64,000 nt of DNA from Candidatus Bathyarchaeota archaeon (GTDB taxonomy: Archaea > Thermoproteota > Bathyarchaeia > Bathyarchaeales > Bathycorpusculaceae). Made by a program: the position numbers and the translations under genes. Positions 27,151 to 38,167 of this stretch are shown here, one piece after another (the first letter of the stretch is position 1; each line of letters begins with the position of its first letter). The notes beneath the pieces are model-generated. The model saw only the letters and a list, made by a program, of their open reading frames with translations, had not been told where the DNA came from and made no database searches. The DNA lies in the NCBI GenBank assembly GCA_963811105.1, contig CAWEPZ010000011.1, positions 192,001 to 256,000 of the forward strand, given 5' to 3'.

Positions 27151-27829
27151 AGTCTTGATGCTCCCTAAAACTTCAATTGCGGAATGCCATCCACTAGGAA
27201 GTAGCATCATGATATCTTTCCGAGAGATTTATTAATATTTCGCCCAGTGGTTCTGGTAACTTCAGGATATTTCGCTCAGATGTATTTGTAGTTAACGGTA
27301 GTTAGATGAACTTTTATTTAAGCCGTACCCCCATAGAAAAGACTGAGAAAATCAAGCATTAAAGAATTATAAATTAGATCGTTTGAGCGTTATTTTGTTT
27401 TAAGTGGTCAAAGCTGTCAGCCTTTACTCGCGAGATTGGAGGACTGAGAGGAAAAAACTTCATACAACTTTAACCGATTCCTATTCAACCAAGTTAGCTT
27501 AAAAGTTTTGCCCCGAGTTGCTACTGTTGAGTCATTTGCGGTTGAGAGCCATAAAAAACAGAAAACTAGGCTTAAAAATATAGTTGATGTATTATCGTTA
27601 GGAATTACATTTCTTCAAACGATTTTTTCCGTTATTTGGTAAAAAAGCCCTTTTGTGCGATATTTGTCCCCTACCATTAGGACTAAAAACTAAAGACCGA
27701 TAAGGGCAATACCCAAAAATTGAAGAAGATAGCTGCTTCACAACAGTTAGCACAGGAAGTTTTGTCTTGCCAATTTGCAAAAAGTGCCTGGCGGTTGTAC
27801 ATTAGACGTTGGTTCAGAATTCTTTACTA

Positions 27830-27842
27830 AAGCTTTTTAGGG
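27830..27842 (+). promoter_or_regulatory. Putative BRE/TATA promoter of queT-queC
   Basis: AAGCTTTTTAGGG about 25-30 nt upstream of the structured leader. Confidence 0.45.
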
Positions 27843-27864
27843 AACTCTCGAATTTTAGAGGGCA

Positions 27865-27933
27865 ATCGGCGGGTGAGTGGAGTCTCCTACCCGTTCCGCC
27901 AACCAAAAATAAAACCCGGGAGTAGGGAGAAAA
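27865..27933 (+). promoter_or_regulatory. Candidate preQ0/preQ1-type riboswitch (SD-sequestering pseudoknot) in the 5' UTR of queT-queC
   Basis: P1 GGCGGG(27868-73)/TCCGCC(27895-900); loop segment TCTCCTAC pairs with GTAGGGAGA (27922-30, the SD); A-rich linker AAAAATAAAAC. Confidence 0.6.
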
Positions 27934-28437
27934 ATGAACTTAAATCTGCATACGAAAGATTTAGCTTTAATTGCGGTATATGCGGCGCTTTATGCAACGC
28001 TTGTTGTTGTTCTTGGAGGTATCTCTTATGGGCCTATTCAGGTTCGCGTTGCAGATTCAATGGTTGCCGCCGTTCCCTTACTCGGTATAGCTGGAGTTTT
28101 AGGTCACACATTTGGAGTATTCATTGGAAACATTTTCTCTTCAGCCGGTCCCATCGACCTTCTTAACACCATTCCATCTTTTGTCATGTCTTTTGTCGTC
28201 TACTATGTTTATGAACACTCTAAGAATAACTACAGTGTAATCGCAACTTGTGTAGCTTACTCAGTTGTCTTAGGCACAACGGTAGGATGGATGCTATCTT
28301 ACCTATACGGATTGCCACTACTGCTTACAATCGCTTACGTAGCGACAGGAAACGTCGTAGCAACTGTCTTGATTGGATGGCCCGTATTTATTGTTCTTAA
28401 AAGATCTGGGATTTTCGGAAAACAGTTTGGAAACTAA
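27934..28437 (+). CDS. queT: QueT-family 7-deazaguanine (preQ0/preQ1) transporter
   Basis: ALIAVYAALY, ISYGPIQVRVAD, GVFIGNIFS..GPID; directly upstream of queC. Confidence 0.88.
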   Translation: MNLNLHTKDLALIAVYAALYATLVVVLGGISYGPIQVRVADSMVAAVPLLGIAGVLGHTFGVFIGNIFSSAGPIDLLNTIPSFVMSFVVYYVYEHSKNNYSVIATCVAYSVVLGTTVGWMLSYLYGLPLLLTIAYVATGNVVATVLIGWPVFIVLKRSGIFGKQFGN

Positions 28438-28460
28438 TAAATAGAAAGGTAGGAAAACGT

Positions 28461-29117
28461 ATGAATCCAACAAAAAAATGCATCATTATTCTCAGCGGTG
28501 GTCCAGATTCAGCCGTAGTTGCGTACTGGGCAAAAAAAGAAGGCTATCAGTTGTTCCCTATAACTTTTAATTATGGCCAAATTGCCGTAAAAGAAACAGC
28601 GGCAGCACAAAAAATCGCAGAAAGCCTTGGTACTAAGACGAAAAACGTCGACCTGTCAGCTTTGAAAACAGTTTTCGGCAATGTAACCTCGCTCTGCAAC
28701 ACCAACATCCCCCTAACCTCTGAGTTCAGCCAACCCATAATTGTTCCTTTCAGAAATGCGATTTTCCTCTCAGTAGCGGTTTCTTATTCGGTTTCGGTTG
28801 GATCTGACAAGATTTTTTATGGCGCGCATGGCTCAGACGAACCTTTCTACCCTGACTGTAGACGAGAATTCTACGAAGCGTTTGAAAAAGCGGCAATGTT
28901 AGGTACAGGTGAGAGCATCAGTATCCAAGCTCCGTTCAGCGGCAAACGCAAATCCGACGTCATCAAGAAAGGCGCTGAACTCGGCGTCCCACTCGAGTTC
29001 ACTTGGTCCTGTTACCGTAATGCTGAGAAGCACTGTGGCATATGCGAGTCATGTGTGAACCGCAAAAAAGCCTTCCAAGAATCAGGCATACTAGATTTAA
29101 CAAATTATGAAGTATAG
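28461..29117 (+). CDS. queC: 7-cyano-7-deazaguanine (preQ0) synthase
   Basis: LSGGPDS, FNYGQ, VPFRNAIFLS, YPDCR, TWSCY...CGICESC..R. Confidence 0.95.
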   Translation: MNPTKKCIIILSGGPDSAVVAYWAKKEGYQLFPITFNYGQIAVKETAAAQKIAESLGTKTKNVDLSALKTVFGNVTSLCNTNIPLTSEFSQPIIVPFRNAIFLSVAVSYSVSVGSDKIFYGAHGSDEPFYPDCRREFYEAFEKAAMLGTGESISIQAPFSGKRKSDVIKKGAELGVPLEFTWSCYRNAEKHCGICESCVNRKKAFQESGILDLTNYEV

Positions 29118-29286: not shown

Positions 29287-29839
29287 ATGGATGTATATGA
29301 AGCACCCATTCATGAAAGACGCTCAATTCGAGCCTTCATAGACAAACCAGTTTTTAGAGAAAAGCTTGAAAAAATCCTTGAAGCAGGTAGACTGGCTCCC
29401 TCAGCCAGAATTTTGAGCTTTGGCATTTTGTTGCAATGAGGGATAGCGATAGTAGAAAAGTCCTCTCTAAAGGTCTATATGCAAAGTTCCTCACCCAAGT
29501 GCCGCTTGTAATTGTGACGTGCGGTGACAAAAAAGCCTCGCCTGACTGGTATGCAATGGAGGTAGCTTTAGCTGTTGAAAACATGATTTCAACTGCCGTT
29601 AGAGAAGAATTAGGCACCTGCTGCGTAGGAAGCTTCGGCGGAAAAGAAATCAAGGAACCATTAAAGCTCCTGAAAACTTTGAAGTGCTCTTACTTTTAGC
29701 GGTATGTTATGTAGGAGAAAAACTTGATTTATCAAGCAACCTTTTGAATCTTGTAAGTTCAAGAAAAAAGTTAGACGAAGTTGCCAACGAAGAAACATTT
29801 GGTGAGCCTTTAGTACTTCAAAAAGTTCCAGAGCTCTAA
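29287..29839 (+). pseudogene. Frameshifted nitroreductase
   Basis: MDVYEA / frameshift / [10 protein letters not shown]...[10 protein letters not shown] / frameshift / ...ALAVENMISTAVREELGTCCVGSF, with further breaks. Confidence 0.8.
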
Positions 29840-34251: not shown

Positions 34252-34464
34252 AATTATTAGATAGTTAGCACCGTATTATAAGCTTTTACAGAAAACCCTA
34301 AACACTCAAATTATTTGCGATAAAGGAATAATCTTCAGTTTCATAACTATGCAAAAAAAACTGATACAATATGAGTATACGCCATGCATAGGCAAACAAG
34401 ATTTCGGCACACACTGTCATACCGAAAAGCTGCTTCATCAAATATCGCTCAAACACCATCATGG

Positions 34465-37487
<3,023 letters not shown>

Positions 37488-38167
37488 CATAGGTGGTGTT
37501 TGTTTGGCGTTTGGTGAAACAACATTTCGAATATGTATAGTGTGTTGCGTCGTTGTTCTTGTTTGCCTATGCATGGTGTCATTTTGATCTTCGCGCAATG
37601 ACTTGGCGAAGTCTCGTCCACCCTTCACTCCCCATCGACATGGTGAGGAGTTGCATCTCTTTATATGGCATAACCCATATTGCTGAATTGCATTAGAAGC
37701 GGCTTTCACTGATATAAGCATTATGTTGAGACTTATTGAGGTTTATTGTGAGATGATTTCTTGCTTCGGTGTCATTTTTGAGACTTTCTAAACTTCACGT
37801 TTTCACTCGACGTTGGTTAGGTGCCGAGTCGCATGGAATTATAGCTTAAGCAGGCCTTATTCATATAAGGATGACGGCATAATTGGCACACAATATGTAT
37901 TATGTGTTTTAATTAGCACTTTTAAGATTAACGTTTGCTTACATTTATGGATGACTAATTGAATTTTAGCAAGTACCCATCTTGTCACCAATGAGGAATA
38001 AAGAAAATCAACAAATCGTGTAACCGCAGAAAAACCTGCATTTTTGATTTTAGCTTATAGTTTAGATTTTCATGAAACGAGATTATTGACATTGCAGATT
38101 TTTTTAGTAGTAACTTTTATTTGGGTAAGGTTTAATGTGATGGTGTATTCTGGGCTCTTTGGCGGGT

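Follow-up and report, generated by a model that had tools for sequence, protein, structure and literature searches.

The leader of queT-queC in a 64,000-nt stretch of the genome of a Candidatus Bathyarchaeota archaeon (the window; coordinates are window positions, on the + strand unless stated otherwise) contains a conserved structured RNA of 65 nt. This motif occupies positions 27866-27930, with a TATA-like box on its 5' side and the start codon of queT on its 3' side. Comparison with its relatives indicates that it is probably a translational OFF riboswitch of the preQ0/preQ1 type, preQ0 being 7-cyano-7-deazaguanine. We consider it an evenly balanced question whether the motif is also a fourth architecture of 7-deazaguanine riboswitch, selective for preQ0 and class-wide in Bathyarchaeia; this broader reading refers to Thermoproteota archaea, the phylum that the search covered and from which the motif is known. 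The ATG of queT (27934..28437; 167 amino acids (aa); PF06177, E 3.6e-21) lies at 27934, and its product is a predicted ECF-type S component transporting a 7-deazaguanine precursor. The queC gene (28461..29117; 218 aa) matches PF06508 (E 9.3e-60) and TIGR00364 (183.7 bits, cut-off 150.3), and its product is, by sequence, a preQ0 synthase.

The fold supported by the comparison is an H-type pseudoknot, in which a first helix (P1) and a helix between an anti-Shine-Dalgarno strand and the Shine-Dalgarno sequence (SD), termed S2, are joined by an A-rich linker. The P1 5' strand, UC-GGCGG (27866..27872), pairs with the 3' strand CCGCC-AA (27896..27902); its 5-bp core, GGCGG/CCGCC, lies at 27868-72/27896-900, and up to two further outer pairs can be added. 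Within the P1 loop, L1 (GUGAGUGGAG, 27873..27882) begins with an invariant G, U and G, followed by a stretch of variable length. The S2 5' strand, an anti-SD mimic (UCUCCUACCCG, 27883..27893), comes next, and the loop ends with L2, a UU (27894..27895). Beyond P1, the A-rich linker L3 (27903..27916), variable in length and ending in an invariant AAA-N-CC, leads to the S2 3' strand CGGGAGUAGGGAGA (27917..27930; CGGG..UAGGGAGA), which contains the SD GGGAG at 27925-27929. In S2, where 27883-93 pairs with 27917-30, the CCG/CGG part adjoins P1 and is separated from the anti-SD/SD part by an irregular, bulged middle. All leader elements listed in the original prediction, which had been made from this one sequence, are found where it placed them, namely the P1 strands GGCGGG (27868-73) and TCCGCC (27895-900), the loop TCTCCTAC (equivalently UCUCCUAC; 27883-90), its SD-bearing partner GTAGGGAGA (equivalently GUAGGGAGA; 27922-30) and the A-rich linker AACCAAAAATAAAAC (27901-15), together with the TATA-like stretch and the queT ATG.

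The evidence for this fold comes from homologous leaders. QueT homologues were gathered from relatives (50 of 61 genomes matched) and from records of Bathyarchaeota and Bathyarchaeia metagenome-assembled genomes. Two alignments were then used: A2, a MAFFT alignment of 37 distinct leaders of close relatives, and A5, an alignment of 100 diverse motif copies. The QueT proteins of the close relatives are 58-96% identical, and conservation of the leader exceeds that of the coding sequence. In A2, 96.6% of the cells are paired and five pairs show compensatory change; none of 500 shuffles attains the observed values for four of the five measures, and slid controls are 43-60% paired. In A5, 86.3% of the cells remain paired, and 13 of the 18 pairs vary on both sides, in 164 cells altogether. 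The covariation score of A5 is 0.248, as against 0.108 in shuffles (0/500 attain it) and at most 0.119 with slid partners.

P1 contributes to this signal, with five of its seven pairs covarying among the 100 sequences of A5. This covariation is not an artefact of fitting, because P1 was left out of the model structure. The variants include GC, UA, AU and GU at columns 3-42, GC and AU at 4-41, and GC and CG at 7-38, and the two outer pairs likewise occur as several pair types. Even among the close relatives of A2, the inner P1 pair has changed from G-C to C-G in 4 of the 37. RNAalifold, a tool unable to draw a pseudoknot, returned essentially P1 alone from the 100 sequences.

Because the fitted structure biases the A5 counts for S2 in its favour, an alignment-free duplex test was added for this helix, with 160 distinct sequences giving 129 distinct loop/tail combinations. 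Cognate loop/tail duplexes have a mean energy of -14.8 kcal/mol versus -13.6 kcal/mol for non-cognate ones, and none of 5000 permutations attains the cognate mean; with shuffled tails, the mean is -8.5 kcal/mol. Compensations in S2 can also be read by eye, such as CCAG/CUGG and CCUCU/AGAGG in locus L214, UUUCCGAC/GUCGGAAA in L217, AUCUCC/GGAGAU in L188, and CCACC/GGUGG in L025, L196 and L203. Only 100-160 sequences entered the covariation and duplex analyses. The pseudoknot of P1 and an anti-SD:SD helix with an A-rich linker, as originally claimed, is thus a conserved structure, both helices of which covary among homologous leaders (A2, A5). A coding explanation was also considered, since a 97-aa open reading frame (ORF) with a GTG start (27873-28166) overlaps the leader. 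The insertions and deletions in L1 and L3 are not multiples of three, which makes a conserved leader peptide unlikely.

Outside the helices, conservation is concentrated around the P1/S2 junction. Twenty-four motif columns are at least 97% conserved in A5, of which 11 take no part in the base pairs of the model: G8, U9 and G12 in L1; U36 and U37 in L2; and A56, A58-60, C62 and C63 in L3. L1 follows the invariant pattern G-U-(R-R)-G (columns 8, 9 and 12 are 100, 100 and 97% conserved), and its length varies between columns 16 and 21. L2 is UU in 100/100 sequences, and columns 56, 58-60, 62 and 63 of L3 are 99-100% conserved. The motif as a whole measures 55-75 nt, with an L1 of 13-25 nt and, in most copies, an L3 of about 8-10 nt.

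The anti-SD strand of S2 is CCUCC in most relatives. The 16S rRNA of the window's own genome ends in ...CACCUCCU (also given as ...GGAUCACCUCCU), and because it holds the same letters, the loop CCUCC mimics the ribosomal anti-SD. The opposite strand carries GGAGG in relatives and GGGAG in the window, placing the SD within S2 at 4-10 nt before the start codon. In 95 of 100 homologues, an ORF of at least 60 aa is called with its start between -2 and +28 nt after the motif end; these starts (ATG, GTG or TTG) fall mostly at +6 to +12, and a few are wrong-frame overlapping picks.

The promoter position is also conserved. The window has a TATA-like box, CTTTTTAG, at 27833..27840, within a longer TATA-like stretch, AAGCTTTTTAGG (27830-27841), and the A/T profile of homologous loci supports it as part of the queT-queC promoter. 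Counted from the first motif column, the A/T fraction of 99 homologous loci reaches its maxima at -28 (0.97) and -27 (0.93), compared with 0.5-0.65 elsewhere. With the first column at 27866, the -28 peak corresponds to TTTTTAGG (27834-41). In archaea, the TATA box usually lies at a fixed distance from the transcription start site, and this spacing would put transcription initiation a few nucleotides before 27866. The leader therefore begins about where the positionally conserved TATA box would start it, in keeping with the predicted arrangement.

The genes 3' of the motif are almost always queT or queT-queC, and occasionally queC comes first or sets of queC-like, queD and queE-like genes follow. 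For the order-level matches (n=100 loci), the first ORF is QueT-like in 90/95 (phmmer, E<=1e-5). In the other 10 loci, tblastn shows that 8 encode QueT; L215 has QueC first and then QueT, and L210 has no QueT or QueC match downstream at E<=1e-4 (tblastn). QueC lies within the fetched stretch in 17/100 order-level loci. It also follows the motif in 16 of 20 lower-scoring genus-level loci (a further one of the 20 has no QueC) and in 16 of 27 class- and phylum-level loci. In the metagenome set (n=80 loci), the first ORF is QueT-like in 71, 6 loci have no callable ORF (4 of these with less than 100 nt of downstream sequence) and 3 are of other kinds. Among these three, L277 consists of the motif, a QueE-like gene and then a QueC-like gene; the best NCBIfam matches of this locus are the five QueE models and TIGR00364, all below the cut-offs.

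Three of the 20 lower-scoring loci, from genomes of the same genus (L090-L092), have only a distant QueC-like gene, 25-34% identical. In these genomes, the motif is followed by a 40-codon remnant resembling the QueT N-terminus and then by a gene of the QueC family (PF06508, E 1.4e-36 for the intact copy in L091). The latter is split into several ORFs in L090, where genes of the PTPS family (QueD-like) and the radical-SAM family (QueE-like) come next; in L091 and L092 it is followed by QueT. The 40-codon ORF has a TTG start and its likeness to the QueT N-terminus was read by eye. Its 3' end adjoins the SD of the gene that follows, and this remnant may serve translational coupling.

The claimed tie to 7-deazaguanine genes is therefore borne out across relatives, with QueT, QueC, QueD-like and QueE-like proteins encoded downstream. 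The regulon is the set of preQ0 synthesis and uptake genes, the same set as that under bacterial preQ1 riboswitches, which control queCDEF, queT and yhhQ according to passages of a 2024 review of the preQ1 family (PMC11625349). On one metagenome contig (L301), the motif precedes a 245-aa multi-pass membrane protein that has no NCBIfam match and that phmmer does not recognise as QueT. This protein may belong to another family of 7-deazaguanine transporters.

The distribution of the motif was followed with two covariance models, R1, built from A2, and R2, built from the 100 order-level matches. The genome samples are draws that include many incomplete genomes, and a genome without a match may still carry the motif; with this in mind, R1 matched 92/120 genomes of the same genus and 119/151 of the same order (54/63 genera). 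R2 matched 95/151 genomes of the same class (54/79 genera) and, in a sample of the phylum, 29/151, of which 16 belong to other classes. These 16 comprise members of three families in our numbering (f44, 9/15; f56, 3/3; f60, 2/2) and two weak matches. A pattern of the invariant core was found in at least 120 metagenome stretches, and metagenome matches carry no taxon. In the window's own genome, R1 gave a single match (27866-27930, 89.3 bits), and the motif is likewise single-copy in most genomes that bear it. One relative has a second intact copy (L067, G023:C2:6256-6823; 92.5 bits), which precedes a decayed queT copy with two TAG and two TAA internal stops.

Despite being arranged like a preQ1 riboswitch, the motif appears, from its sequence, to lie outside all three preQ1 classes. 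The Rfam models of preQ1-I, -II and -III give no match at gathering thresholds across the whole window, and no match at E<=10 in 27700-28000 or in the 86-nt segment 27855-27940. With permissive filters, they also give no match in 13 archaeal motif loci. The same permissive scan did find purine and TPP riboswitches, tRNAs and a weak PreQ1 match of 21.1 bits before a Clostridium queT (the RF00522 gathering score is 39 bits). The suggestion of a possible new class thus stands after the model search. The elements near bacterial queT-like genes, an HEARO RNA (L059, 2180-2389), a purine riboswitch (L058, 966-1065) and a TPP riboswitch (L057, 689-779), belong to ordinary known families.

The closest resemblance is to preQ1-I (RF00522). 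Both are H-type pseudoknots in which the P1 loop pairs 3' of an A-rich tail. As passages of the same review describe (PMC11625349), translational members of preQ1-I also hold the SD within the second helix, and queC-type operons and queT are among the genes controlled. In our motif, P1 and S2 cross and both covary, and L3 is A-rich with invariant A56 and A58-60. In class I, a UC or AC step precedes the P1 3' strand, and its C pairs with the ligand (in the review's account, PMC11625349); in contrast, the motif has UU at this step in 100/100 sequences. The C that follows (column 38) forms a covarying base pair with column 7, GC in 96 and CG in 4 sequences of A5. The dimensions differ as well. 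Class I has an L1 of 2-3 nt and a second helix of 3-4 bp, whereas the motif has an L1 of 13-25 nt, a second helix of up to 11 bp and a total length of 55-75 nt. Finally, the motif is archaeal (Thermoproteota), whereas class I (RF00522; types I-III) has been reported from bacterial phyla.

With preQ1-II (RF01054; the COG4708/queT motif), the motif shares its location in the queT 5' untranslated region and an SD buried in a pseudoknot helix with a hairpin loop. Class II control is purely translational with a fully buried SD, and the class is an HLout pseudoknot with helices P1-P4 that is limited to Bacillota, as stated in the corresponding passages of the review (PMC11625349). Unlike class II, the motif has two covarying helices, different invariant letters and no embedded P4 hairpin, for which L3 is too short in most of the 100 sequences. 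Like preQ1-III (RF02680), it uses an anti-SD:SD helix, and the ligand family would be common to both. However, the SD helix of class III is a separate P5, more than 40 Å from the pocket of an HLout pseudoknot (PMC11625349, passages on class III), whereas that of the motif belongs to the pseudoknot itself.

A second type of leader was observed in six genomes of the same genus (L027, L028 and L030, at about 1454-1500 in each; L267, L268 and L269), which mostly lack the main motif where searched. It precedes a divergent QueT paralogue, about 29-36% identical, and reads GGUAG-UUU-CCG-UAUAUAAC-CUACC-UUAAAAAAC(C)-CGG. With a UU above P1, an AC before the P1 3' strand and an A-rich tail, it has the layout of preQ1-I as given in the review passages (PMC11625349). 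It shares with the main motif the core ...CCG...AAAAAAC(C)CGG and a TATA box at a similar distance, but it differs in its short L1 (UUU), its long L2 ending in AC and the lack of a long anti-SD strand. Neither R1 nor R2 matches it, there is no Rfam match at E<=10, and its six near-identical copies offer no covariation.

We propose that a free 7-deazaguanine binds at the P1/S2 junction, where the invariant unpaired letters lie. Archaea insert preQ0 into tRNA by means of an archaeal tRNA-guanine transglycosylase (arcTGT), and QueC makes preQ0. The window's own genome has a gene of this transglycosylase family (arcTGT-like, with a frame of 544 aa); for these reasons preQ0 would be the most likely ligand. 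Its binding would stabilise S2 and withhold the SD from the 30S subunit. Translation of queT-queC would then fall, giving less import of the precursor by QueT and less synthesis by QueC. The motif combines the traits by which riboswitches are generally recognised, namely a covarying structure, conserved unpaired nucleotides and association with the genes of one pathway.

Several observations weigh against this reading. The minimum free energy (MFE) of the single sequence, -23.7 kcal/mol, is no better than that of its shuffles (-23.46 +/- 3.21 kcal/mol, z -0.07), so that the evidence for the structure is comparative. In 49 and 38 of the 100 sequences, respectively, the two outer pairs of P1 cannot form, and the middle of S2 is irregular, with pairs 30-72 and 32-67 unpaired in 63 and 49 of 100. 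Moreover, the alignment behind the A5 counts for S2 was itself fitted to S2, and the relatedness of the sequences inflates the shuffle tests. S2, a long helix with a mean of about -15 kcal/mol, is strong and may therefore form without a ligand, and no alternative ON conformer with covariation support emerged from the two candidates tested, a competing hairpin and a hairpin within L1. The absence of the class-I specificity cytosine leaves no base that can be named as a ligand contact. In addition, a search of the window's own genome with a QueE-like query gave only generic radical-SAM matches (best E 5.7e-8) and no clear queE, and the genome's only PTPS (QueD-type) gene lies in a pterin cluster, adjoining GTP cyclohydrolase-like and pterin-pathway-like genes (read by eye). 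These pathway stretches are G000:C13:65889-69233 (L256) and G000:C3:88332-89303 (L257). The pool of free metabolite is uncertain for this reason, and the organism may depend on salvage through QueT.

The competing hairpin, GCGGGT/ACCCGT plus GAG/CTC, had been proposed to tie up the anti-SD and free the SD, giving a two-state switch. It can indeed be paired, in 98% of the cells for 37 sequences and 93% for 100 sequences. However, its covariation does not exceed that of shuffles: there are no compensatory pairs on the 37 sequences, and on the 100 sequences 491-496 of 500 shuffles attain each of the five observed measures. The G-C to C-G swap in 4/37 close relatives, which is compensated in P1, breaks it. 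The two-state switch is thus unproven, yet the hairpin may serve as the ligand-free conformer, because its nearly invariant columns are uninformative. The single-sequence MFE structure mixes this hairpin with a shifted P1, and we prefer the P1 register of the model because it is the one that covariation supports. The L1 hairpin, GUGGG/CCCAC, is weak (7-44 of 500 shuffles attain the observed values) and is impossible in relatives with a short L1, such as L022 and L015.

The same fold could bind another purine-like or pathway compound, such as 7-carboxy-7-deazaguanine (CDG, the QueC substrate), guanine or the archaeosine base, which we consider unlikely. The own genome, which has queC and an arcTGT-like gene, bears on this question because, with no clear queE and its PTPS gene in a pterin cluster, QueT might import CDG for QueC. 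The pocket also lacks the class-I specificity motif, so that nothing ties it to preQ1 chemistry. In relatives, however, the motif also stands before operons with QueC-family, PTPS-family and QueE-like genes or with QueE-like and QueC-like genes, where end-product feedback by preQ0 fits better than the sensing of an intermediate. In addition, all known riboswitches of queT and queC sense preQ1 or preQ0, as far as the review passages tell (PMC11625349).

It is quite unlikely, in our view, that the leader is operated by a protein, for example a protein of the tRNA-guanine transglycosylase type or another RNA-binding protein that would bind the conserved unpaired letters and lock the SD-sequestering pseudoknot, with no direct part for a small molecule. 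No regulator gene accompanies the motif in the loci read, where queT, queC, queD-like and queE-like genes lie downstream. The compact pseudoknot, the A-rich L3 and the invariant junction are like those of small-molecule aptamers such as preQ1-I, preQ1-II and SAM-II. Conversely, invariant unpaired nucleotides are also typical of protein-binding sites, and few riboswitch classes are known in archaea, going by passages of a 2017 survey (PMC5473149). A leader that acts without any ligand, through constitutive damping of translation, mRNA stability or a thermometer for queT-queC, is highly improbable: S2 is strong unaided and no alternative conformer is backed by covariation, but a simple sequestering helix needs neither 11 invariant unpaired letters nor an invariant L2 and L3, and the motif occurs mostly once per genome, before 7-deazaguanine genes.

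The preQ0/preQ1-type riboswitch would be a candidate new class whose ligand family is already known but whose domain of life is new. The motif is not described in the passages covered from the literature on archaeal and preQ1/preQ0 riboswitches (including PMC5372724, PMC5473149, PMC5737381, PMC11625349 and bioRxiv 10.64898/2026.10.21.760802), a search that did not extend to the motifs listed in the Weinberg 2017 supplement or to the cluster atlas of the 2026 preprint, either of which could contain this RNA. The searched passages of the 2024 review contain no occurrence of "archaea" (PMC11625349), and those of the 2017 survey list TPP and fluoride as common archaeal riboswitches and FMN, Mg-I and guanidine-II as rare ones (PMC5473149).

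If the reading as a fourth architecture is correct, no riboswitch class before this one would have been known from archaea alone, and the archaeosine precursor pathway would gain its first example of control at the RNA level. A separate preQ1-I-like leader before a queT paralogue would coexist with the motif in the same genus. To our knowledge, the TPP, fluoride, FMN, Mg-I and guanidine-II classes of archaea are all common to bacteria. Archaea would then possess an RNA of their own that senses the archaeosine precursor, whether newly evolved or retained. The motif would be a fourth solution to the recognition of one small heterocycle, useful for the comparison of RNA folds, and would supply a small SD-sequestering switch (55-65 nt) originating from organisms difficult to culture. 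It would also mark queT as a component of archaeal 7-deazaguanine salvage.

Two further features of the window were noted. Just 3' of queC, a nitroreductase-family gene is split into two ORFs (29287-29439 and 29436-29699, + strand), both of which match PF00881; they lie in different frames and overlap in ATGA. Possible explanations of the split are a frameshifted pseudogene, an error of the assembly and recoding. Farther downstream, a large-subunit rRNA gene (34464-37489, - strand) has no adjoining small-subunit rRNA gene. The sole small-subunit match of the assembly is on another contig (G000:C2:605162-606656), and the rRNA genes of this genome appear to be unlinked.

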